From: a candidate division FCPU426 bacterium
GTDB taxonomy: Bacteria > Oederibacteriota > Muellerivitia > Muellerivitales > Muellerivitaceae
Direction of reading: 5' to 3'
Assembly: GCA_963738405.1 (NCBI GenBank)
Contig: CAVTWJ010000012.1
Span: forward strand, 1 to 64,000
DNA: 64,000 bases
Numbering within the stretch: position 1 is the first letter of the stretch; every line of letters starts with the position of its first letter. Positions 14,216 through 28,640 of the stretch are shown here, in pieces. The notes below the pieces were generated by a model. It saw nothing but the letters and a program-made list of their open reading frames with translations. It was not told the origin of the DNA and did not search any database. The position numbers and the translations under genes were made by a program.

Positions 14216-16885
14216 GTGAAGCGATTGTCTCTTAGGTGGGTATTGTTTTTTGTGACATTGTTTATGGCCTGGGTGCCCAGTTCTATCCTCCTCGCCCAAA
14301 TTTCGCTGACCACCTACCATAACGACCAGGCCCGCGACGGCTGGAACCAAAACGAAACCATCCTGACCACCGCCAACGTCAACACCACCGAATTTGGAAA
14401 ACTTTTTTCCGACGCCGTGGACGGGCAGGTTTACGCCCAACCCCTCTACTTGCCCAATGTCTCCATCGGCGGAGGCACACACAATGTGATTTATATCGTC
14501 ACCGAAAACGACAGCGCCTATGCCTTCGATGCCGATAATGCAGGGGTTACCTACTGGCACGACAGCTTCATTGGCGGGGTCACCATGACCGTTTCCCAGG
14601 CCGATGTGGGCGGCTGTCCCCAGATCACTCCCCAAATCGGCATTACCGACACCCCTGTCATCGACCCCGCCACGGGCACGATTTATTTCGTGGCCATGAC
14701 CAAGACGGTCTCAAGAGGGGTCACCACCTTCACCCAGACCCTGTACGCGCTGGATGTCACCTCCGGTGCCGAAAAATTCAACGGCCCCCAGACGATCGCG
14801 GCCACCGCCCCCGGCACCGGCGATGGCGGCACCACGGTCAAGTTCCGCCCCCTGGTCTATAAAGAAAGGTGCGCCCTGGCCCTGGTGAACGGAGTGGTTT
14901 ACACCAGCTGGACGGGCCATTGCGATTTTGACACCTTGGATGGGAATTATTACGGCTGGGTCCTGGGTTACAACGCTTCCAACATCACGGCCCAAGTCAG
15001 TGTCTTTTGCGCCTCGCCCAACGGCAGCGAATCTTCCTTTTGGGAATCGGGCGACGGCCCCTCGGTGGATTCCTCCGGCAATCTCTATTACATCGCCGGA
15101 AATGGAACCTTTGATACCTCGGCCCCTGTTTCGGATTTCGGTCAGTGCATTTTAAAACTTAACACCATCGCCAACGCGGTCACCGCGCTGGATTATTTCG
15201 CGCCCCTTAGCCAGGCCGCTATGAGCTCCGGGGACCAGGACATGGGCTCGGCGGGCCAATGCCTACTACCTGCTTCCTGGGGAACTACGGCCCATCCCAG
15301 TCTTTTGTTGGGGGCGGACAAACCCGGCGATCTTTACGTGGTGGACGCCGACACCGGTAGCATGGGCAAGTACAGCACCACCGCCAACAATATTGTTCAA
15401 ACGGTCCTTCCGATCGGGGGAAAGGGCTACACCACGCCCGCTATCTACAGCAACGGGGTCACCCAGTTTGTTTATTGGGGGATGACGGGGGCGAAAATGA
15501 AGGCCTATGTCTTTTCTAACGGGCAATATGTGACCCCCAATTCCTCGGCGACCAGTGAAACCTATAGCGGCTCCTCCAGCGGATGCGTCCCCAGCGTTTC
15601 CTCCAATGGAACCACAAACGGCATCGTTTGGGGCCTTTTGCCTGGAACCCCGGTCCAATTGTGCGCCTACGACGCCACCAACCTCACCAAGGAGCTTTAC
15701 ACCAGCGCCCAGAACAGCGCCAGGGACTCGGCGGTCGCTACTTACGTCAAGTTCGCCCCGCCAAGCGTCGTCAACGGAAAGGTCTATGTGCCCACCGCCA
15801 GTAGTTTGGTGGTATATGGGTTGATTTCCACCGGGGGCACCGCCACTTTCACCTCTACGGTGACTCGAACACCTAGCCCCACACCCACGCTAAGCCCCAC
15901 GGTGACCTCCACCCCAACTCAAACCCGAACCACTACTCTAACCAGCACCGCTACCTCCACTTCCACGAATACTTCCACCAAAACAAGTACGGCGACCCCC
16001 ACAACCACAGCGACCTTTTCGATGACCACCACAGCCACCTTCAGTTCCACCAGCTCTCCTACCGCGGTTCCACCCACGGTCACCTTCACCGCCACTTCCT
16101 CACGAACCTCCACAGCGGTTTTTACGGCCACGCCAACCCTGACTTCCACTCCTACCGTAACCAGCACTGGAACCCCCACCAATTCCTTCACCTTCTCGCC
16201 AACGCCCATCCCTACGGGCACGAATACCGCGACTCCCACAACTTCCAAAACCTCTACCTCGACTCCTGTGCCGCCGACCTTCACAACCACGCCCGTTCAT
16301 TCCTCAACCCCGACCGCCATTCCCAGCTCAACCCCCACGGCCACTTTTTCCGCGACACTCTTGAACACTTTCACGGCAACTGCGTCTAGTACAAATACTC
16401 TGGTGAATAGTTTCACCCCTACTTCCGTGAACAGTTCCACTCCGACCTGGACGCCCTCCTCCACCTCCACGTCGGTACCGACTTCCGCCTACACCCCCAG
16501 CGCGACGCCTTCCACGACCCCCTCGCTCACACCCTCTCCCACCTTCACGCCTACGGCTTCTCCAAGCCTCGAACCCTCGCCCTCTGGCACCCCCACCGTG
16601 ATCGTGCCGGCCAAGCCTGTTCTTTACCCCAATCCCGTCAAGGGGGGAACCTCCGCCGAGCTTCAAGTCACCCTTTTGTCCGCTGCGAATGTAAGGGTGC
16701 AAATATTCACCTTGTCTTTCCGCAAGGTCTTTGACCAGACCTATTCGAATCTATCCGCCGGCGTCGATGACCTGCCGGTTTCTCTGGTCCATAGCGAGGG
16801 ACACCCCTTGGCCAACGGGCTTTATTACGTGGTCGTTACCGTCAACGGCCAGCGAACGCTCTTGAAACTGCTGATCTTGAAGTAG
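14216..16885 (+). CDS. Secreted protein: PQQ-like beta-propeller region, long Thr/Ser/Pro linker, C-terminal Ig-like sorting-type domain
   Basis: Signal peptide; TYHNDQARDGWN..ET, VDGQVYAQPLY, KFAPPSVVNGKVYV; ~260-aa T/S/P tract; C-terminal YPNP...LANGLYY...KLLILK. Confidence 0.85.
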   Translation: MKRLSLRWVLFFVTLFMAWVPSSILLAQISLTTYHNDQARDGWNQNETILTTANVNTTEFGKLFSDAVDGQVYAQPLYLPNVSIGGGTHNVIYIVTENDSAYAFDADNAGVTYWHDSFIGGVTMTVSQADVGGCPQITPQIGITDTPVIDPATGTIYFVAMTKTVSRGVTTFTQTLYALDVTSGAEKFNGPQTIAATAPGTGDGGTTVKFRPLVYKERCALALVNGVVYTSWTGHCDFDTLDGNYYGWVLGYNASNITAQVSVFCASPNGSESSFWESGDGPSVDSSGNLYYIAGNGTFDTSAPVSDFGQCILKLNTIANAVTALDYFAPLSQAAMSSGDQDMGSAGQCLLPASWGTTAHPSLLLGADKPGDLYVVDADTGSMGKYSTTANNIVQTVLPIGGKGYTTPAIYSNGVTQFVYWGMTGAKMKAYVFSNGQYVTPNSSATSETYSGSSSGCVPSVSSNGTTNGIVWGLLPGTPVQLCAYDATNLTKELYTSAQNSARDSAVATYVKFAPPSVVNGKVYVPTASSLVVYGLISTGGTATFTSTVTRTPSPTPTLSPTVTSTPTQTRTTTLTSTATSTSTNTSTKTSTATPTTTATFSMTTTATFSSTSSPTAVPPTVTFTATSSRTSTAVFTATPTLTSTPTVTSTGTPTNSFTFSPTPIPTGTNTATPTTSKTSTSTPVPPTFTTTPVHSSTPTAIPSSTPTATFSATLLNTFTATASSTNTLVNSFTPTSVNSSTPTWTPSSTSTSVPTSAYTPSATPSTTPSLTPSPTFTPTASPSLEPSPSGTPTVIVPAKPVLYPNPVKGGTSAELQVTLLSAANVRVQIFTLSFRKVFDQTYSNLSAGVDDLPVSLVHSEGHPLANGLYYVVVTVNGQRTLLKLLILK
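15840..16600 (+). repeat. Low-complexity Thr/Ser/Pro-coding tract
   Basis: ACN/TCN/CCN codon run encoding repeats such as TATPT and TSTPT. Confidence 0.85.
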
Positions 16886-16989: not shown

Positions 16990-19287
16990 ATGAAATTCCC
17001 CCGACCCGGTTTGACCGCTTCAGCCTTTTTTTTATTTTTTCCCTTGGTCCTTCTGGCCCCCCTTCCTTCCCAAGCCCAAATGCTCCTTTCCGGGAAAGTT
17101 TTGGATGCCTATCTCCAAACGCCTTTAAGGGAGGCGAAGGTTTCCGCCCAAGGGCAAACCGTCGAGACGGACGCCGCCGGAAAATTCCAAATATCAGCCG
17201 GGGACCCAACCTCGGAACTGGTAATTACCAAAGAAGGCTACCTGCCTCTCATGCTCCCCGTTCAGGGCTGGATGGGCGAAAAGGCGGTGGCCTTAAAACC
17301 TTCCAATCTCACCCTTCCAGAAGTGGTGGTGCGGGCCTATGGGGAAGACCAGAAGCTTTTGGAAACCCCCGGCAACCTCTCGCTGTTGACCGAGCGTGAC
17401 CTCGACCGGGGGAGCCGGGTCAACCTGGCGCCGGTGCTGAACGCGGTGGCAGGGGTGCGGATGGACCAGGCCTTCATGGTGGATTCGAGGCTTTCCCTTC
17501 GGGGCGTGGGTTTGACCGCCAACTACGGCATCCGGGATATTGGTATTTATGTGGACGGCATTCCCATCAACGAAGCGGATGGGTTCGCCCGTATGGAAGG
17601 CCTGGATCCAGATCTTTTAGGCGAGGCTCAGATCATCCGGGGGCCCGCTTCCAGCCTTTATGGCGCGGGCGTGGGCGGGGACGTGCTTTTTAATACCCTT
17701 CGCCCTCCGGCCGGGGAAACCAGCCTGGAAGCCTCGGGGCTGGCCGGTTCCTGGGGGCTTTACCGCTCCGAGGGTTCGCTCAAGGCAGATCTGGGCAACG
17801 GTTTTATGTTGGTCAACTACGGAACCGAATGGTTCAACGGCTATGTCAACCACACGGCGGATTACCACAGCTTCGCCACGGCCCTCGGCACCTTTTATCC
17901 CGGCGACAAAGACAGCCTGACGGTTCTCATCAACCAATCCAACGAGCAGTCGCTGGTGGCCACCGCCGAAACTTACGCCCAATTCACCTCCGCGCCCCAG
18001 GCGGGCGTGGCCGCTGACGACCTTTTCAACCTGCACCACAACGAGCTATGGACCCGGTACGGGGTCTCCAACCGCTACGTTTTCAGCGACCAGTGGGAAA
18101 ATGAAACCACCCTCTATGCCTCGTCTTTCCTCATGGACAGGGCCTTCGCCGACTCCCTGGCCTTCGCGGCGCTGTTGAACAAGACCATGCAAAACGCGGG
18201 GGGCCGCACCCAATGGACCTTTAAGACCAGCCTAACCGACCGCCTGGATCTTTCCTTAAGCGCGGGCGGGGAATTCATGAACCAATTCTCGACCTATAAC
18301 TATTACTACAACAACCACGGGGTCCAGGGGGCCCTGGGTTATATCCTCCAGGGAACGGAAGAACATGAGAATCTTTTTTTCGAGGCGGACGCGGACCTCG
18401 AGAAAAACACCTTCCTCACCACCGGCCTAAACCTCAATGCCACCAGCTACATGCTGAATTTACAGACCTCCCAATTGAACAACGCCGTTGGCTTTACCCC
18501 CACTCTCTGCCTTCGGGTCGCCTTGTCGCATGTATTCGACAAGGCCTTCTCGGTTTACGGGGATGTCAGCCAGGGTTTCTCGCCGCCCGATTTTGACGAG
18601 ATGAAAAACCCCTTCACGGGCGGCCTGCTTCCGAACCTTCTTCCCGAATTGGCCACCCAATATGAAATAGGCGCCAGGGGCCGTCTTTCGGACATCCCTC
18701 TCGGCTATGATCTGGCGCTTTACGATTTGGACGCGGTCCAGGAACTGGTCCAGCAAACCGTGAGCGGGGTGGCGGAGTTCGTCAACGCGGGCGGCACCAA
18801 CCATAAGGGGGTGGAACTGACCCTGTCGGAAAGCCTGGTGAATGATCCAACGCGATTCCTCACCCTTTTAAAACCCTGGATCGCCTATAGCTATCAGCAT
18901 TACGTCTTCACCCAATACACCAATAATGGGGTCAGCTACGCGGGGAACCAGTTAACTGGCAACCCGGAGAACCAATTCAATACCGGGATCGATATTGAAA
19001 CTCAGCCGGGCCTTTACCTTAACACCAACATTCAATTCGTGGATGCCTACCCTATCACCGACAGCAACAGCGTCTGGAACAATTCATTTGCCCTCTGGAA
19101 CGCCAAATTGGGTTACCGCCAAACGATCGGGAAGCAGATGAAGGTGGATGCCTTTGTGGGCGGGGAAAATCTTTTGAACCAAACCTATTCGGCCTACGTG
19201 GCTTTCAATGCCACCAACGCGGCCTATTACGAGCCGGGTGTGGGCCAAAGCCTTTACGGCGGTTTGAATTTGAACGTGTTGTTTTAG
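16990..19287 (+). CDS. TonB-dependent receptor with an N-terminal carboxypeptidase-regulatory-like domain
   Basis: Signal peptide; EVVVRA TonB box; plug motifs LSLRG, YVDGIP, IIRGPASSLYG; ENLLNQTY; terminal Phe. Confidence 0.93.
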   Translation: MKFPRPGLTASAFFLFFPLVLLAPLPSQAQMLLSGKVLDAYLQTPLREAKVSAQGQTVETDAAGKFQISAGDPTSELVITKEGYLPLMLPVQGWMGEKAVALKPSNLTLPEVVVRAYGEDQKLLETPGNLSLLTERDLDRGSRVNLAPVLNAVAGVRMDQAFMVDSRLSLRGVGLTANYGIRDIGIYVDGIPINEADGFARMEGLDPDLLGEAQIIRGPASSLYGAGVGGDVLFNTLRPPAGETSLEASGLAGSWGLYRSEGSLKADLGNGFMLVNYGTEWFNGYVNHTADYHSFATALGTFYPGDKDSLTVLINQSNEQSLVATAETYAQFTSAPQAGVAADDLFNLHHNELWTRYGVSNRYVFSDQWENETTLYASSFLMDRAFADSLAFAALLNKTMQNAGGRTQWTFKTSLTDRLDLSLSAGGEFMNQFSTYNYYYNNHGVQGALGYILQGTEEHENLFFEADADLEKNTFLTTGLNLNATSYMLNLQTSQLNNAVGFTPTLCLRVALSHVFDKAFSVYGDVSQGFSPPDFDEMKNPFTGGLLPNLLPELATQYEIGARGRLSDIPLGYDLALYDLDAVQELVQQTVSGVAEFVNAGGTNHKGVELTLSESLVNDPTRFLTLLKPWIAYSYQHYVFTQYTNNGVSYAGNQLTGNPENQFNTGIDIETQPGLYLNTNIQFVDAYPITDSNSVWNNSFALWNAKLGYRQTIGKQMKVDAFVGGENLLNQTYSAYVAFNATNAAYYEPGVGQSLYGGLNLNVLF

Positions 19288-21923
19288 CGGGAAATGACGA
19301 TCTTAAGCTTCTGTCTGAAGGTCACAGCCCCGTTTGAGTTGATCACATCCACCACGGCGATGTAATAGCCGCTGGCCATGCCGGATGCGTTCCAAAGGGT
19401 TTGTTGGGACCCCGGGTCCTCCTTAATCGTGGCCACCCTTTCCCCGGCGATATCATAAATTTGGACGCGCAGGGTGTAGGGCTGGAGCGAACTGAATTTA
19501 AAGGCCGTCTTGAACCCGTCGGAGCTGGAAAGAAAATTGGGGCAGGCCGAAAGGGTCCAGTGCTGGTTGGTTTCGCCAGCCGTGACCTGGACGATGCGGG
19601 TGATATCTTCCGTCGCTCCCGTCCCCTGGTCCCAATGGACCGAAAGAATGTAATTTCCGGGGGAAACATAAGGGCCGGAATCGCTAGTTCCGTTCCAGGT
19701 TAAGGTAACGGCTGTTCCGGAAGTTTGAATGGTCATTTGAACTTCGGAGGCGGGGCCTGAGGCACCTGGCTGGAAAGCGCTTTGGCTTAAAAGGACTCCG
19801 GTTAGCTGGGAACCCGTTGGGTCCTCCGTCCAGCCGGAGAGGTGCTTGACCAGTTCCCCTGCCTCGTTAAAGACGCTGGCATCCACCCGCAGGATAGGCC
19901 GGTTTACCATCGCCTGCCTCGTGACGGTAGTCACCACGCCGAGAGGATCGGTGTTTTTAATAACAATATAATAGGTTCCATTCACGACTGGATTGCCTGA
20001 GCCGTCCAGCCCCTTCCAAAATCCCAGGGAGACCCCGCCCGAGTATAGGATGATTTGGTTCTGGGTGCCCTTAAGCGTAGTGATGGGCCCTCCCGCCAAG
20101 TCCAGGCTCAAAACACTTTGTGAATATTTTCTTGTCCATAAGCCGCAAATGAGTTCCCCCGCCTCGTTGTAAACCCCCGCCTCAACCGTGTACCCCCCCG
20201 TCACCGCCACCGTGGCGGCGGCGGAAAGGGGCATTCCCAGACTGGATGAGGAAAGCAGGGCAGTGTTCACGATCTGGCTTTGACCCGGAACAAAGGAATT
20301 GATTTGGGCCTGGTAGCTCAAGCCGTAAACCCCAGGCGGGAGTGTGGGAGGAAGGTTCCAAACCAACTGGGAAGAGGAGGTCGAAAAAGTCGCGGTACCG
20401 GAAGCCGGCGGGGAAAGGCTTATGAAAATTTCATCCGGCGGTAGGTTGTCCGTGACCTGGGCGTTATCCAGTGTTCCCCCGTTCAAGGTCACCGAGAGGG
20501 TATAGGTGATCATGTCACCGGAAGAGGCGGAGCCGGGGGAAGCGGTTTTTCCCAAGGAGGTCCAGGGGGTGGCCGTGGGCGTCACCGTGTAGGTAACTGT
20601 GGGTGAGGGTGTCGGTGTTTGGGTGGGGGAGAAGGTAAGGGTTTGAGTCATCGTTACGGTGAGCGTGGCAGTGGAGGTGAAGGTGGAAGTAAAAGTCAGT
20701 GTTACGGTAGGGCTTGGAGTCAGGGTCGGGCTGTAGGAGGCGGTGGGGGTCTCCGTCGGCGTCTGGGTGGATGTAAAGGTGGCAGTGGAGGTCGGTGTTG
20801 AGGTGGGGCCGCAGAGGCCGGTGATTTTTCGCACGACCGAGTTGCCGTAATCCACCACGTAAAGGTCTCCGGTGCCGTCAAAGGCCAGGGATTCGGTGTG
20901 GTTGAACTGGGCAAGGGCAGCTGGGCCCCCGTCGCCAAAATAACCTGCCGCGCCGGTGCCTGCCATAGTGGTGACCGTACCCGAGGGGATTCCGACCTCC
21001 CGCACGACGTTGTTCATGTCGTCGGTCATGAAAAGGTTTCCGCCGCAACCGAAGGCCATGGTGCCGTTGTCGAAAAAGAAATCGGCCAGCAGGGCGGTGC
21101 CACCATCACCGGTGTAGCCTGGCGTGCCAGTTCCCGCAAAGGTTGAAATAACCCCTGTCGCGATGGAAACCTTCCGGATGACCCAATTGTTGAAATCGGA
21201 AATATAAAAGTTCCCTAAATTGTCTGGATCAACCATTTCACAGCCGTTCAACTGAGCCGATACGGCCGCCCCTCCGTCCCCCGTGTAGCCCGGCGTGCCG
21301 GTTCCCGCCACGGTCGTGATGATTCCCGTCGTCTCGCTGTACAGTCGCACGGCGTTATTGCCCGAATCGGCGATGTAGAGGTTGTTTTGGACGTCGAATC
21401 GAATGCCGATGGGGGAATCAATTTCAGCCGAAAGGGCAGCCCCGCCGTCGCCTGAGAAGCCTGGCGTGCTCGTGCCCACCACGGTGGTGATAATGCCTGT
21501 TGCCGCGTTCACTTCCCGGATTACATCGTTGTAGTAATCGGCGATGAAGAGATTGTTGTTGGAATCCACGGCTATCCCTGAGGGGTAGAAAAAGGTGGCG
21601 AGGGTGGCCGGGCCGCCATCCCCGGTGTAGCCGCCCAGGGTGGAAGACCCCGCATAGGTGCTGATAACGCCGGTGGCGGCGGTTACTTTGCGGATCACGC
21701 AATTTCCCGCATCGGCGATGTAATAATTACCGAAAGAATCGAAGGCGATATCGTCGGGCTGGTTGATTTCGGCCTGGTTGGCCGCCGACCCGTCCCCGGT
21801 GTAGCCGCCAATTCCGTTTCCAGCGGCGGTGGTAATGGTTTGTCCACAGGCGGAGAATAAACCCATCCCTGGGGCGAAGGTTATAAATAGTAACAGCCGG
21901 AAAATATAAATCTTTTGAATCAT
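19284..21923 (-). CDS. Secreted NHL-repeat protein with a T/P linker, DUF11-like domain, FlgD-like Ig domains and a C-terminal sorting-type domain
   Basis: Six G(Y/F)xGDG-type NHL repeats (YIAD...IRK); GDMITYTL...VTDNLP; VYNEAGE...W.G...GTY; C-terminal CPN...IYDIAGE...SGYY...K. Confidence 0.85.
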   Translation of the reverse strand: MIQKIYIFRLLLFITFAPGMGLFSACGQTITTAAGNGIGGYTGDGSAANQAEINQPDDIAFDSFGNYYIADAGNCVIRKVTAATGVISTYAGSSTLGGYTGDGGPATLATFFYPSGIAVDSNNNLFIADYYNDVIREVNAATGIITTVVGTSTPGFSGDGGAALSAEIDSPIGIRFDVQNNLYIADSGNNAVRLYSETTGIITTVAGTGTPGYTGDGGAAVSAQLNGCEMVDPDNLGNFYISDFNNWVIRKVSIATGVISTFAGTGTPGYTGDGGTALLADFFFDNGTMAFGCGGNLFMTDDMNNVVREVGIPSGTVTTMAGTGAAGYFGDGGPAALAQFNHTESLAFDGTGDLYVVDYGNSVVRKITGLCGPTSTPTSTATFTSTQTPTETPTASYSPTLTPSPTVTLTFTSTFTSTATLTVTMTQTLTFSPTQTPTPSPTVTYTVTPTATPWTSLGKTASPGSASSGDMITYTLSVTLNGGTLDNAQVTDNLPPDEIFISLSPPASGTATFSTSSSQLVWNLPPTLPPGVYGLSYQAQINSFVPGQSQIVNTALLSSSSLGMPLSAAATVAVTGGYTVEAGVYNEAGELICGLWTRKYSQSVLSLDLAGGPITTLKGTQNQIILYSGGVSLGFWKGLDGSGNPVVNGTYYIVIKNTDPLGVVTTVTRQAMVNRPILRVDASVFNEAGELVKHLSGWTEDPTGSQLTGVLLSQSAFQPGASGPASEVQMTIQTSGTAVTLTWNGTSDSGPYVSPGNYILSVHWDQGTGATEDITRIVQVTAGETNQHWTLSACPNFLSSSDGFKTAFKFSSLQPYTLRVQIYDIAGERVATIKEDPGSQQTLWNASGMASGYYIAVVDVINSNGAVTFRQKLKIVISR

Positions 21924-23489: not shown

Positions 23490-24602
23490 TTGAAATTTCC
23501 TATCCTGCCTTTTGTGGTTGTGCTTGCGATGGGGAGCTTCACCCCGGAATCTTCTTTGGGCTTTGACAACCAACCGCCCACCACCATGGTCAAAATGGTA
23601 CTCCGGGATATTTCCCACTACGCCAAAAACAACAAGTTCCTCTCTCAACCCAAAATCTTTTACCGTTCGGGCCTTCTCTATTCCCGCCTGGAATACGCCT
23701 TGGACCGCGAACGGAACCAGCAAATGATGGTGGTGGGGCATGAGCCCGACATCTACACCATCGACCGGGTGGCCAAGACCGCCAAGGCCATGAAAGACCC
23801 GGAGGGGGCTTTCCACTGGCCCATCTGGTCTTACGGGGAAGTGCCCGAATCTTTGGAGCGCCTGGAATATGGGATGGAATTCGATTTTTTCAAGAAGGTC
23901 AAGGCCCCTCAGAGCGGACCGGTAACCCTCGAAAAGATTCCCTGTGACCGCTACACCTTTAAAAAAGGAATTTACGAGGCCGATCTATTTACCAAGTTGG
24001 GAACCCAGACCCCGGTGGAGATCCGCATTACCAAGGGCGGCCGGGATGAGATGGACGACTTTTACGATGACTACGAGGCCAACCTGCCATTCGACCCCTC
24101 GCTTTTCAAGGTGCCTGAGGGCATCCAGATCGCTAAGGACCCGGAAGACCAGGTCGCGGACTGGAAAGATTTTTCACCCCCGGGAGGGGACTGCGCCCTG
24201 AAGATGCCGGGAACGCCGAAGCAACCCGACCCCAAGATGCCCCTGTGGGAATCCGACGACGCCGACCAAAATAATTACGCCGTCAGTTACTACGATGCGG
24301 ACAAACCGGTCACCAACATTCAAGTTTTTTTCAACGGGGTGATGGCCGACCAGGCACTGTCCATGAAGTTGAAGGCATCCGACATGAAGCGCCTGACCTA
24401 TCAGGGTTATCCCGCCTTTGAATTTCGGTTGTCCGGAGGTAATGGAGCCGATTTGCGGATTCGCTTTTGCCTGGCGAAGACCCGGCTTTACGCCTTGAAC
24501 CTGACGGTCAACACCGAGGACGACCCGAACAAGACCGTTCAACTGCACATCGACCCGGTTCAAAGGGCCCAGGATTTTTTCGCGACGCTGAGGATCAAGT
24601 AA
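23490..24602 (+). CDS. Exported hypothetical protein (two domains)
   Basis: TTG at 23490 after AGGAGG; hydrophobic N-terminus; FDPSLFKVPEG linker motif. Confidence 0.7.
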   Translation: MKFPILPFVVVLAMGSFTPESSLGFDNQPPTTMVKMVLRDISHYAKNNKFLSQPKIFYRSGLLYSRLEYALDRERNQQMMVVGHEPDIYTIDRVAKTAKAMKDPEGAFHWPIWSYGEVPESLERLEYGMEFDFFKKVKAPQSGPVTLEKIPCDRYTFKKGIYEADLFTKLGTQTPVEIRITKGGRDEMDDFYDDYEANLPFDPSLFKVPEGIQIAKDPEDQVADWKDFSPPGGDCALKMPGTPKQPDPKMPLWESDDADQNNYAVSYYDADKPVTNIQVFFNGVMADQALSMKLKASDMKRLTYQGYPAFEFRLSGGNGADLRIRFCLAKTRLYALNLTVNTEDDPNKTVQLHIDPVQRAQDFFATLRIK

Positions 24603-24711
24603 AAGAGTTGGCCTGTTACCATTTTCCTTAATATCACCCCCTAAAGGGGCCCTGAATTCATGAACCCTCTTTCGCCAGGAGAGGTAAAATAGACTTGTAG
24701 GAAGGCTCTCA

Positions 24712-25074
24712 GGTGGCGCCCTTCGAGGCGTGGCGGGGACTGGGGTCCCAAACCGATCAAGAGCCGGGTCGACAAAAGCCGGAAGGCTGGTAAGGGTTTC
24801 GGGCTGGCACCCTTGAGGGGCGCATCGGGAACTGAGGTTCCAAAAAGCGGGAAACCCGGCCTGGTACAACCGGTGAGTGGCTGGCGCAGAGTAGGTGCTG
24901 TAGCGTTAGTGTCGGGTTGTAAGGCAGGTGGAGTTAGTACAATCGTCGGAAGGGTTCAAGGGTTGCGCCGGACGGCGCGGGGCAGAGGCCCAAAACCAAT
25001 TTGGAATCCTGCTGAAGATATTGCTAGTGAAGTTTAAGCAGGTCGCAGTGGCTTGACGCCCTGGGGCGCCTACC
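24712..25074 (+). ncRNA. Large highly structured non-coding RNA, ROOL-like, compact (~363 nt)
   Basis: Ends pair in a long helix (GGUGGCGCCCU/GGGGCGCCUACC, GGCGU/ACGCC, ACUG/CAGU); about 10 internal helices; no credible ORF; TAAAAT upstream and a terminator downstream; motifs recalled from ROOL RNA. Structured ncRNA ~0.85, ROOL identity ~0.6. Confidence 0.8.
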
Positions 25075-25095
25075 GGCCCCGGGGCTTTCTTTTTT
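25058..25095 (+). terminator. Intrinsic terminator overlapping the 3' end of the ncRNA
   Basis: GCCCTGGGGC-N8-GCCCCGGGGC followed by TTTCTTTTTT. Confidence 0.8.
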
Positions 25096-25261
25096 CGAAC
25101 CCCTAAACCGACAACTTTCCCCGAATGAACCCTAAAGTCCCAAAAGATGAACCGAAAAGTGAGTTACAGGGCTAAAATGCTTTGATAAAATACGAAACGG
25201 TGGGTTGATAAGGTTTTGACAGGGTAGTTCGTCTTTGTGCAAGAAATATTGAGGTTACTAG

Positions 25262-27067
25262 ATGCTTCAAGGCACGATCGACAAGTACAAACTCATCGAA
25301 ATTAAGGGAAGTGGGACCTTTGGTACGGTCTGGCTGGCCGAGGATACCTGGATCGGCAAAAAAGTCGCCATTAAGATTCCCCACAACCAAAAAGAAGAAT
25401 TCACCACCCTCATCGCCGAACCCAAGCTTTTAGCCTCCCTCGACCATCCCAACATCGTTCAGATCCTCACTGTGGATAAAGCCGAAAACATCTTTTTCAT
25501 GGTCATGGAATATGTGGACGGCAAAAACCTGGCCCAGCTGATTTCCGAAACCACCCTGACTTATAAAGAAGCGGTCGACATCATCATCCAGATCCTCGCG
25601 GCGCTCCAATACGCCCACGAGAAAAACGTGATCCACCGCGACTTGAAGCCCGGAAACATCCTCCTCACGGCTGAGCGCAAGGCGAAAATCACCGATTTCG
25701 GAACCGCCATGATCCAATCCGGAAAAAACGGCGCGGGGATCGGCGGGACCATCTACTACATGGCCAAGGAACAGGTCTTGGGCCATCCTACCCCGGCCTC
25801 AGATGTCTATTCAGTGGGCGTGATTCTTTATGAAATGGTTACTGGAAAACTTCCATTTTCCGATGAAGTGCCCATGGCGGTCTTAAACAAGATATTAAAA
25901 GACGAGGCCCCCGCACCCCACACCTTGAATTCCGCGATCCCCAAAGAACTGGAAGCGGTGATATTAAAAGCCCTTCAAAAAGAAATTTCGAAACGATATG
26001 GGTCCGCCAATGAAATGAAGCAGGATTTGGAAAAAATCCCATCCTCGGTTTTGACCTCGCTAATTCAAGTAGGGAACCAAAGCCAGGAACTATTAACCCA
26101 TACCATTCAGCAGGAGGCCGTGAAAAAGGCGCCTAAGGAAACGGGAGACATCAACACCCTGCGCTACCAGGGCTACCATTACAAACTGATCCGAACCATC
26201 GGCACCAGGGGAAAAGAAGAAGGCAATTTCATTTCGCCCATCGCGGTTGCGGTGGACGCTCAAAAACGTTCTTATGTCTGCGATTCTATGAAATGCAATG
26301 TGCAAGTATTCGATTTTGAGGGCAAGTTCCTTTACGGAGTGGGAAAATTTGGGAAAGATTCGAATGACCCCAAAGATGTCAATTTCCTCATGCCCATTTC
26401 CTTAAGCGTGGACCAGGGCGGGAATTTAGTGGTTCTGGACGCTAAAACCTGTACGGTCCAGATCATCGGGAAAATGGGACAATTGATCACTAAATTCGGC
26501 GAACCGGCCTCGCCCACCACCGGCAAGATTGAAATCGGAACCGGCGGTTTCTTCCACCCCCAGGCCCTCTGCCTGGACGATAAAGACAATATTTACGTTT
26601 CCGACACCGGCAACCACCGCATAAGGGTCTTCAACCCCGCGGGCAAGGTCATCAACAAATTCGGCATTCAGGGCGCCCGTTTGGGCGAATTCAACAGCCC
26701 CGCTGGGGTGACCATGGACTCTTCAGGGAACCTACTGGTGGTTGATGAAAAGAACTACCGGGTGCAGATTTTTTCAGCCCGGGGCGTTTTCAAGAACAAG
26801 TTCGGCAAACGGGGAACGGGCCGGGGCGAGTTTCAAGCTCCTGTGGGAGTCGCTACCGACACCAAACGCAATATTTTTGTGACCGACAGAGACCTTCGAA
26901 TCCAAATTTTTGACTCTGAGGGGTATTATTTAACCGACTTTGGAACACCCCAGGGCAATTACAAAATCGCCCCCAAGTACTACGGCTTGGCCACCGACAT
27001 TGAAAATAACCTCTACGTGACGGATATCGCCAATTGTAGTCTCTTGATCTACGCCTTGAAGAAATGA
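25262..27067 (+). CDS. Hanks-type Ser/Thr kinase fused to an NHL-repeat propeller
   Basis: GSGTFG, VAIK, HRDLKPGN, DFG, DVYSVG; C-terminal NHL repeats; no TM segment. Confidence 0.93.
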   Translation: MLQGTIDKYKLIEIKGSGTFGTVWLAEDTWIGKKVAIKIPHNQKEEFTTLIAEPKLLASLDHPNIVQILTVDKAENIFFMVMEYVDGKNLAQLISETTLTYKEAVDIIIQILAALQYAHEKNVIHRDLKPGNILLTAERKAKITDFGTAMIQSGKNGAGIGGTIYYMAKEQVLGHPTPASDVYSVGVILYEMVTGKLPFSDEVPMAVLNKILKDEAPAPHTLNSAIPKELEAVILKALQKEISKRYGSANEMKQDLEKIPSSVLTSLIQVGNQSQELLTHTIQQEAVKKAPKETGDINTLRYQGYHYKLIRTIGTRGKEEGNFISPIAVAVDAQKRSYVCDSMKCNVQVFDFEGKFLYGVGKFGKDSNDPKDVNFLMPISLSVDQGGNLVVLDAKTCTVQIIGKMGQLITKFGEPASPTTGKIEIGTGGFFHPQALCLDDKDNIYVSDTGNHRIRVFNPAGKVINKFGIQGARLGEFNSPAGVTMDSSGNLLVVDEKNYRVQIFSARGVFKNKFGKRGTGRGEFQAPVGVATDTKRNIFVTDRDLRIQIFDSEGYYLTDFGTPQGNYKIAPKYYGLATDIENNLYVTDIANCSLLIYALKK

Positions 27068-27071
27068 GGAT

Positions 27072-28640
27072 TTGATGAGCACGCCGCTTCCCAACGATGC
27101 CATACCGCCGGGACGCATTGTTCTGACACCGCCTAAATCCTCCGGCAAGCCCCAAATCACCCTTTCTGTATTGGCGGGGCCCGAGCAGGGCTCGGTTTTT
27201 AAGATCAACCGGCCCACCACCACCATGGGACGTTCCAATACCTGTGAAATTGTTATCTCGGACCCTCTCGTTTCGCGCCAGCATTGCCAAATATTACTGG
27301 GAATGGGTGGAATTAGCCTAAGGGATTTGGGAAGTACCAATGGCACCTTTTTGAACGGCCAAAGGGTCACCGAAAACCCTCTTCGCAATCAGGATGTGAT
27401 TTCGGCAGGCGGCACCAGGATTCGCTTCGCCTTGGAATTGGGGAAGGCAGAGGGTGACGAACGGGCGCTCAAGATTGACGAACTGGCGCACAAAAAGCTC
27501 CTTACGCTTTATGAGGTGGGAAACATCGTCAATTCGGTTCTCGAACTCAAAACCCTGCTTTCCATCATCATGGCCATGGCCATCAAGGTGATGCAGGCCA
27601 ACCGGGGCTTCCTGCTGCTTCGAGAAAAAGGGGGGCAGCTGGTGCCTGTCGCAACGCATGCCCTCACTTCCGCTGAGGCTACCGCGCCCTATAGCCAAAC
27701 CATCGTCGATACCGTTCTCAAGGAAAGAGTGCCAGTACTAGTGCTGGACGCCTCCCATGACGTTCGTTTTTCAGCTCGTGAAAGCCTAAAGGCGCTTCCT
27801 CTGTCTTCCGTCATCTGCGTACCCATCTGGGATAGGGACACCATTGTGGGGGTCATTTATGTGGACAAGGCCGAGGGAACGGCCACCTTCAATGAAGAAG
27901 ACATGTATTTCCTTTCCGCCTTCGCCAATCAGGCTGCGGTGGCCATTACCAACGCGAAGTTGTTTGACGACGTAAGGCGCGAGGAACGCATGAGAACTTC
28001 CTTGCAAAGGTTTATGTCACCTAACCTGGTGGATGAGATGGTTCAAAAGGGGACCATGAACCTGGCACTGGGAGGCGTAAAAAAGAAAATCGCTGTGCTT
28101 TTCTGCGACATTCGTGGATTTACCCCGATGGCTGAAAAAGAACCCGTGGAAACAGTCGTGGGTCTTTTAAACGAGTATTTCAGTACCATGTCCGAAGCCA
28201 TCTTCGCCAACCAGGGAACACTGGATAAGTTTATCGGCGACGCCATCATGGCCATCTACGGTGCTCCCTTGGAATTGACCAACAGCTCCCTGAAGGCTGT
28301 GAAAAGCGCCCTTGAGATGCGTGCTCGACTTTCCCAACTGAATGAAAAATGGAAAAAAGAAGGCAAACCCCAGCTGGAAGTGGGATTTGGCATTAACACA
28401 GGCGAGGCCATTGTCGGAAATATCGGAAGCGAACGCCGCATGGAATATACGGCCATCGGCGACATGGTGAACGTTGCTTCCCGGGTTGAAGGCGAGACCG
28501 AGCATAACCAAATTTTCATCACCGAAGCGACCCTTGCCGATTTGGAGGGCAAGGCAGAGGTGAAAAAACTTTCCCCGGTCCAACTGAAGGGTAAAAGTTC
28601 CAAGGTGCAGATTTACGAAGTGCTTTCCCTGAAAGATTAA
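27072..28640 (+). CDS. FHA-GAF-class III adenylate cyclase
   Basis: FHA (GR, VSRQH, DLGSTNGT); GAF; FCDIRGFT, DKFIGDA, YTAIGDMVNVASR. Confidence 0.93.
   Translation: MMSTPLPNDAIPPGRIVLTPPKSSGKPQITLSVLAGPEQGSVFKINRPTTTMGRSNTCEIVISDPLVSRQHCQILLGMGGISLRDLGSTNGTFLNGQRVTENPLRNQDVISAGGTRIRFALELGKAEGDERALKIDELAHKKLLTLYEVGNIVNSVLELKTLLSIIMAMAIKVMQANRGFLLLREKGGQLVPVATHALTSAEATAPYSQTIVDTVLKERVPVLVLDASHDVRFSARESLKALPLSSVICVPIWDRDTIVGVIYVDKAEGTATFNEEDMYFLSAFANQAAVAITNAKLFDDVRREERMRTSLQRFMSPNLVDEMVQKGTMNLALGGVKKKIAVLFCDIRGFTPMAEKEPVETVVGLLNEYFSTMSEAIFANQGTLDKFIGDAIMAIYGAPLELTNSSLKAVKSALEMRARLSQLNEKWKKEGKPQLEVGFGINTGEAIVGNIGSERRMEYTAIGDMVNVASRVEGETEHNQIFITEATLADLEGKAEVKKLSPVQLKGKSSKVQIYEVLSLKD

Follow-up and report, generated by a model that had tools for sequence, protein, structure and literature searches.

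A candidate triple-module RNA family with a regulatory lead and a putative function in the bacterial family Muellerivitaceae

Large structured RNAs are few in bacteria, and most of them are without a known trigger. ROOL RNAs average 581 nt, have six junctions, three pseudoknots and a long helix that joins their ends, and often lie near tRNAs and in prophages, according to the available part of their description (PMC5737381). ROOL and GOLLD RNAs carry a disordered linker inside a cage, as stated in the accessible sections of a structural account (PMC12286853). Smaller regulatory RNAs follow other plans. For example, RNAs that titrate proteins are built around repeated binding sites, with 18 in CsrB and 9 in CsrC (PMC4347634, in part). 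The fnrS gene of E. coli has an FNR site at -42.5, and -41.5 is the class II activating position of E. coli FNR (PMC3688515, in part).

The RNA gene described here shares features with each of these systems. Like ROOL and GOLLD, it is a large, multi-junction, stand-alone bacterial RNA of unknown function with a variable internal linker (PMC5737381, PMC12286853, both in part). Unlike ROOL, with its 581 nt and six junctions, it measures about 360-415 nt and has three junctions and three copies of one domain; it is also chromosomal, does not adjoin tRNA genes, is known from one family and has an unconserved closing helix. The raiA motif RNA is likewise structured and stand-alone, and its variable neighbour orientation argues against a leader in the part of the account that we cite (PMC10861870); OLE, as partly described, is a structured stand-alone RNA that binds proteins. 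Both are widespread in Gram-positive phyla; the new RNA has no Rfam match. The raiA and OLE RNAs are not known to be internally triplicated. CsrB/CsrC (RsmX/Y/Z), CrcZ and GlmY resemble it in having their own transcription unit, repeated sites and a proposed role in soaking up protein (PMC4347634, in part), but the new RNA would offer three folded domains of about 80 nt as sites, and CsrA and Hfq are absent from all five carriers searched. The likeness to FnrS lies in a CRP/FNR-type site near -42, complete in six of the ten homologues (FnrS: PMC3688515, in part); the FNR-activated FnrS of E. coli lowers target mRNAs by base pairing, whereas the new RNA is larger and mostly paired. Finally, tandem riboswitches also have several aptamer-sized junctions followed by a terminator, but the new RNA has no controlled gene in six of the ten loci and matches no riboswitch family.

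The host copy lies in a window of 64,000 nucleotides, the whole stretch of DNA analysed, from a candidate division FCPU426 bacterium (assembly GCA_963738405.1, contig CAVTWJ010000012.1, positions 1 to 64,000). A preliminary description had placed a G-rich, stand-alone structured RNA in a 660-bp gap with a TAAAAT box before it and a terminator after it. The gap is as described, between an open reading frame ending at 24602 and the next starting at 25262; the box stands at 24685-24690, the terminator hairpin at 25058-25085 is followed by a U tract, and G skew reaches +0.29 over 24800-24999. The claimed preference for the + strand also holds: the + strand folds with z -3.35 (0/100 shuffles as stable) and the - strand with z -2.17 (1/100), and the + strand is predicted to be the more stable in 10/10 homologues. 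The proposed length of 363 nt is revised, since transcription would start near 24697 and yield about 395-400 nt (about 24697-25095); the ten RNAs as excised measure 359-417 nt. The main feature, a threefold repeat, had been missed. The features are as follows.

ends 24602: upstream open reading frame of 397 aa (ORF call)
24647..24662, + strand: CRP/FNR-type operator position (TATGA-N6-TCATA); the host copy keeps the right half only (24658-24662)
24685..24690, + strand: -10 box TAAAAT; homologues have a similar hexamer in this position
24694..24774, + strand: module 1, with P1, internal loop, P2 and a three-way junction with P3 and P4
24704-09/24760-65, + strand: stem P1 of module 1
24736-24749, + strand: conserved hairpin P4 of module 1 (P3 is a variable hairpin)
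24778..24874, + strand: arm 2, which carries module 2
24778-82/24870-74, + strand: basal helix of arm 2; compensatory change in 3/10 rows
24784-24865, + strand: module 2, with P4 at 24828-24841
24877..24940, + strand: linker, variable, poor in C and rich in G/U; 27-94 nt in the homologues
24934..25027, + strand: arm 3, which carries module 3 (24942-25017), whose P3 and P4 are shortened
25058..25095, + strand: intrinsic terminator hairpin and U tract, in 10/10 homologues, 96% of cells paired
25163..25191, + strand: separate promoter-like site of the gene at 25262, outside the RNA
starts 25262: downstream Ser/Thr kinase-NHL gene (ORF call)

Every homologue has a -10 box, three tandem modules of about 80 nt, a variable G/U-rich linker and an intrinsic terminator. 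The gene, its repeat, its fold and its terminator can be read from sequence comparison, by which the RNA consists of three tandem copies of one three-way-junction module. The module plan comprises P1 (6-8 pairs), an asymmetric internal loop, a short P2, the three-way junction, P3 and P4, and then AAA. P4 is nearly fixed, with a near-invariant GGGAC/GUCCC stem and a loop that is mostly UGAG, while the junctions are A-rich and the P3 loops vary freely; no column is invariant across the 30 modules. Counting the linker, the repeat period of modules 1 and 2 is 83-94 nt. P4 may resemble helix 91 of 23S rRNA; the host assembly is without rRNA. In two homologues (G020, L012 1870-1911; G004, L013) the terminator hairpin also resembles P4 in sequence.

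A covariance model trained on modules 1 and 2 (16 copies) finds module 3 in eight of the ten loci (E 5.5e-7 to 1.1e-4). The refined model, built from 27 of the 30 modules, recovers 30/30 in all ten carriers, a 31st alignment row (E 0.81) having been excluded before counting. The covariation among homologues that the preliminary description had sought is present: across 27 modules, two-sided change is seen in 19/21 pairs, pairing holds in 84% of cells as against 26-58% with slid partners, and 0/500 shuffles equal the observed values on 4/5 measures, these counts coming from a model-fitted alignment that is biased towards structure. When all 30 modules are aligned plainly with MAFFT, the alignment falls out of register and recovers P1 alone. 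In an unfitted alignment of the ten whole RNAs, two-sided change occurs in 24/83 pairs (0/500 shuffles). The weakest helix is P2, with 68% of cells paired. Together with the homologues, promoter and terminator, this covariation supports a stand-alone structured non-coding RNA and the alternative, also raised earlier, of a new large-RNA class; the locus is very probably an uncatalogued gene of about 400 bases for a real structured RNA.

The modules cluster by position and not by genome (2 changes, 0/200 shuffles), with 61-71% identity at the same position and 48-56% across positions. Each copy has thus been kept since before the genera split, and the triplication is old. All ten carriers have three copies, and the RNA tree agrees with the two multi-member genera.

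Not all of the pairing first proposed survives. The helix said to join the two ends is complementary at 20/20 pairs in the host copy but has 0.0 expected pairs in the ensemble, where it is outcompeted by the terminator stem (9.9 expected pairs), and in nine homologues the same columns pair at just 6-14/20. All 11 listed internal helices exist as complementary word pairs, but most have pair probabilities near 0. Those that stand are GGAAC/GUUCC and the GCGCC/GGCGC hairpin, both part of the conserved fold; UGGCGC/GCGUUA forms in the host copy but lies in the variable linker. In all ten RNAs the three-arm fold itself is less stable than the predicted minimum by 3.6-14 kcal/mol, and its helices have mean pair probabilities of 0.14-0.68, which are low because the repeats can cross-pair.

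BLAST finds the RNA in 7/30 other genomes of the host's family, and a whole-RNA covariance model in 10/31 including the host, one copy per genome, spanning 7/17 genera and 8/17 high-quality genomes. It was not found in 21/31 family genomes, nine of them of high quality. A closer search of five non-carriers gave just two module matches (E 0.2 and 0.4; G008 and G006), and a genome outside the family (G077) a whole-RNA match of E 2.8e-4 on a single hairpin; all three are rejected as chance. The covariance model finds no homologue in 68 other genomes of the phylum. Beyond it, four sequence patterns gave no match in viral contigs, 15 pattern matches in metagenomes gave none confirmed by whole-RNA or module model, and phage and plasmid records held short chance matches only. 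A pattern scan of 185,579 species genomes returned three matches, each in a genome already known as a carrier, and at least two carriers whose sequence fits the pattern escaped it. The module model found nothing in 52 genomes outside the phylum, nor in further, partly overlapping samples (0/1, 0/2, 0/151 and 0/151, with 30 candidates scored per genome in the last two). As the searches outside the phylum were samples and exact-pattern scans, distant relatives may exist; the known range, and with it the reach of the finding, is so far one family and ten genomes, whose hosts appear to be uncultured. Within the host assembly, which is without the rRNA operon, there is no second copy of the module (next match E 0.38), so that a site on an mRNA which the RNA might mimic is not evident.

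Most genomes have different genes on either side of the RNA. In six of the ten loci the gene downstream is convergent, and where it is co-directional, three of the four cases have a promoter signal of their own. These varied neighbours, convergent genes and separate promoters indicate that the RNA acts in trans and is not a leader. Carriers have no common neighbour gene beyond an island shared by three genomes (G020, G004 and G021), and an NYN gene adjoins the RNA in 1/10. Spacings between modules change by numbers of bases that are not divisible by three, and homologues differ in their longest open frame, both of which argue against coding.

A lead on when the RNA is made comes from its promoter. 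An exact TGA-N6-TCA occurs at one register in six of ten RNA promoters, centred about 41.5-42.5 bases before a start inferred from the -10 box. On an operator matrix trained on 19 boxes upstream of protein genes, which had been picked for matching TGA-N6-TCA and came largely from the loci of three carriers, these six score 10.4-19.0 bits, corresponding to a genome frequency of 2e-6 to 5e-5; the host copy, G001 and G015 are negative, and G003 scores 0.2 bits. In the host genome, a box of the TATGA-N6-TCATA type precedes genes for a CRP/FNR regulator, cytochrome bd, pyruvate:ferredoxin oxidoreductase and ScdA/hemerythrin, and NO reductase has a weaker TGA-N6-TCA site upstream. By the same matrix, 21 of the 23 best sites in the host genome were called intergenic, one of which was later placed in a gene; the genes behind such sites include those for the CRP/FNR regulator, pyruvate:ferredoxin oxidoreductase and ScdA, and the cytochrome bd site ranks lower. 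Two strong operator-like sites without a downstream gene were set aside as lying in or at reading frames. The regulon loci are the following.

C14:258791-279150, C1:114959-119338, C18:37702 and C18:61309: regulon loci in the host genome
L125, L126 and L128: further regulon loci

Across the family, a CRP/FNR-type regulon with TATGA-N6-TCATA boxes covers cytochrome bd, NO reductase, ScdA/hemerythrin, PFOR, a nickel transporter and a CRP/FNR gene itself. In the host genome, CRP/FNR proteins are encoded at C14:258791-259489 and on C1 near 117851-118060. By gene content it reads as a low-oxygen/NO regulon. In the three-genome island the RNA sits amid ScdA/hemerythrin, phosphoribosyltransferase, cytochrome c, radical SAM and transporter genes, many of which have the same CRP/FNR-type box upstream. 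Two or more ScdA_N genes occur in 10/10 carriers versus 6/21 non-carriers (good genomes, 8/8 versus 3/9), at a threshold set post hoc and among related, non-independent genomes. With operator and regulon membership both legible in the DNA, CRP/FNR control within the family is likely. The host copy may be controlled otherwise, since it lacks the full box. Host and G003, both of which have lost the left operator half, share another upstream element (CACCCCCTAAA..GGGCC; window 24635-24662 and L017), which is perhaps a replacement control site.

We propose that a ~400-nt RNA, derived from an old internal triplication, would be transcribed independently and would fold into three long arms that are each capped by the common three-way junction with its nearly fixed hairpin. 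In most carriers, the activator of the low-oxygen/NO regulon, a CRP/FNR-family protein, would bind near -42 and turn the RNA on; transcription, activation and oxygen or NO as the signal are what we infer here from sequence. The three arms would serve as three binding sites for one protein, which the RNA would titrate or scaffold under low oxygen in a CsrB-like manner, but with whole folded domains as sites. That the ligand is a protein is a guess. We put the probability of a multivalent protein-binding decoy or scaffold at roughly 0.4, because the RNA is trans-acting, preserves three folded sites, has no conserved seed and resembles protein-titrating RNAs. The candidate partners CsrA, Hfq and Ro60/TROVE are absent from the five carriers searched, the CsrA search control being positive in 3/14. 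A base-pairing small RNA of the FnrS type is rejected: FnrS depends on Hfq, found in 0/5 carriers, and the long single-stranded stretch of the new RNA, its linker, is unconserved in both length and sequence. Synthesis and probing of the ~80-nt module are feasible, which opens its ligand, partner and oligomer state to direct study.

One alternative, possible if unlikely, is an RNA-only multimer, in which the arms and self-complementary CCGG words would act as contacts for a cage or lattice unrelated to ROOL and GOLLD. A stand-alone ornate RNA with a central linker of 27-94 nt recalls the linker inside the ROOL and GOLLD cages (PMC12286853, in part), and the near-invariant P4 stem and A-rich junctions would fit tertiary contacts, but conserved loop-loop complementarity was not seen by eye in the module alignment, where the P3 loops are free, and a phage or tRNA-island context is absent. 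Another reading, which we regard as speculative and equally short of probable, is a new RNA machine made on demand under low oxygen or NO, in which three paralogous junction domains would form a pseudo-threefold particle, either by themselves or with a protein at its centre. A stress-switched ornate RNA with a known regulator would differ from ROOL, GOLLD and raiA, for which the published accounts, as far as available, give no such regulator.

Rather doubtful is a ligand sponge, that is, three riboswitch-like aptamers without an expression platform that would hold a metal or metabolite relevant at low oxygen. Tandem aptamers exist, as in glycine and triple c-di-GMP riboswitches, and the size of about 80 nt, the three-way-junction layout and membership in a redox regulon would suit one. 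Against this, no riboswitch family matches (E<=10 on the host copy, E<=5 over the RNA in nine homologues), the absence of any invariant column across 30 modules is low conservation for a ligand pocket, and the module never occurs in a leader among 99 phylum genomes searched. A suspected likeness to SAM-I, TPP, c-di-GMP and ykkC riboswitches found no Rfam support.

The regular period of modules 1 and 2 (83-94 nt) might also suggest a precursor cut into unit-length RNAs, either by tandem self-cleaving ribozymes or as a nuclease-processed array of the type III antitoxin or guide-array kind. This is improbable, as three copies are fixed in 10/10, the modules diverge by position, the only common neighbours are those of the three-genome island, an NYN gene adjoins 1/10, and no ribozyme family in Rfam matches the host copy or its homologues.

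A cis-acting attenuator or triple riboswitch of the downstream gene, with the 5' segment pairing the terminator loop as an antiterminator, is very improbable. Positions 24712-24722 at the 5' end are complementary to 25063-25074 in the terminator loop of the host copy, and about 19 such pairs are predicted in G001 (L014), possibly a genus-specific alternative fold; this pairing amounts to less than one expected pair in 7/10 RNAs and exceeds shuffles in 1/10, the downstream gene is convergent in 6/10, and that of the host copy has its own promoter-like site. Still more remote is repeated DNA that is mobile or without function, or a coding sequence whose conservation mimics RNA structure: the variable flanks and patchy presence (10/31) would suit mobile DNA, which is opposed by the single copy per genome, the covariation, the retained promoter and terminator and a tree that fits the two multi-member genera, and neither the spacing changes nor the inconstant longest frame fit coding.

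Known RNA families offer no better assignment. Rfam 15 gives no gathering-level match on 24600-25270, only weak unrelated matches up to E 10, and the GOLLD, OLE, HEARO and raiA models, which had been named as comparisons, do not match, their best scores falling far under the cut-off. A substitute for RNase P is rejected, since RNase P RNA is present elsewhere in 28/30 family genomes; the host assembly is without RNase P RNA and without a 16S rRNA motif, probably an assembly gap. A 6S or SRP copy is rejected on matches elsewhere in all five carriers, mostly under cut-off, and tmRNA on the one called in the host genome, none being in the window. The published accounts consulted, in the parts available, of ornate RNA classes, tandem junction RNAs and the P4 hairpin sequence hold no description of it, and motif lists outside Rfam may bear on this novelty. 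As judged from sequence features, the family appears uncatalogued, with an unusual repeated-domain build, a regulatory lead, a narrow range and a putative function, and it is a plain example of a large RNA built by repeating one domain.

The first assignment, a minimal ROOL, fares worst. Rfam model RF03087 has no match at E<=10 on 24600-25270 and none in the whole host genome or the five carrier genomes (5/5), whereas at the membership threshold of at least 99.1 bits its positive controls work (L. salivarius 130 bits; 17/20 viral loci 160-367 bits). The other three viral loci with the ROOL pattern (L058, L070 and L072) have no gathering-level ROOL match and may be chance or divergent ROOL-like RNAs. 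Profiles of the 17 ROOLs and of the ten new RNAs each recover their own members and neither finds the other, and the whole-RNA model has no match in 56 loci retrieved by the ROOL pattern. Most of the proposed ROOL blocks lie in the variable linker (24877..24940); the two long ones mismatch ROOLs at 7-9/19 and 5-7/18 positions, as they do shuffled ROOLs, and have 5-8 mismatches against the nine homologues. The ROOL words AAUAGACGC, AGUAGCC, GGUGAAA, CUCAGAC and CUGAAUA are exact in 0, 0, 0, 0 and 1 of the ten RNAs and in 11, 17, 17, 8 and 7 of the 17 ROOLs, AGUAGCC and GGUGAAA being in 16 of these owing to the retrieval pattern. With one mismatch allowed, GGUGAAA occurs in 9/10 RNAs (shuffles 5.4) and CUGAAUA in 7/10 (shuffles 3.0). 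Among homologous loci, tRNA genes lie within about 8 kb in 2/9 and adjacent in none; in the window the nearest Rfam tRNA match is about 20 kb away. No phage families appear among 101 neighbouring proteins, and a MutL search of viral contigs found none. That the RNA belongs to ROOL, for which the faint one-mismatch excess and the shared variable linker speak, is thus largely refuted already, with a residual chance close to nil, by the failure of models and profiles in both directions, the four hallmark words exact in none, the missing closing helix and the different architecture.

The rest of the window gives some view of the host. Downstream of the RNA, at 25262-28640, a Ser/Thr kinase with NHL repeats is followed by an FHA-GAF-adenylate/guanylate cyclase gene, and then by genes that we take, from their sequence, to be mutL- and miaA-like. 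A TonB-dependent receptor gene within the window marks the host as a diderm. At 14216-16885 and 19284-21923 (L127) lie secreted proteins whose C-terminal domains are alike and whose long linkers are rich in Thr and Pro, presumably typical of the candidate lineage FCPU426.
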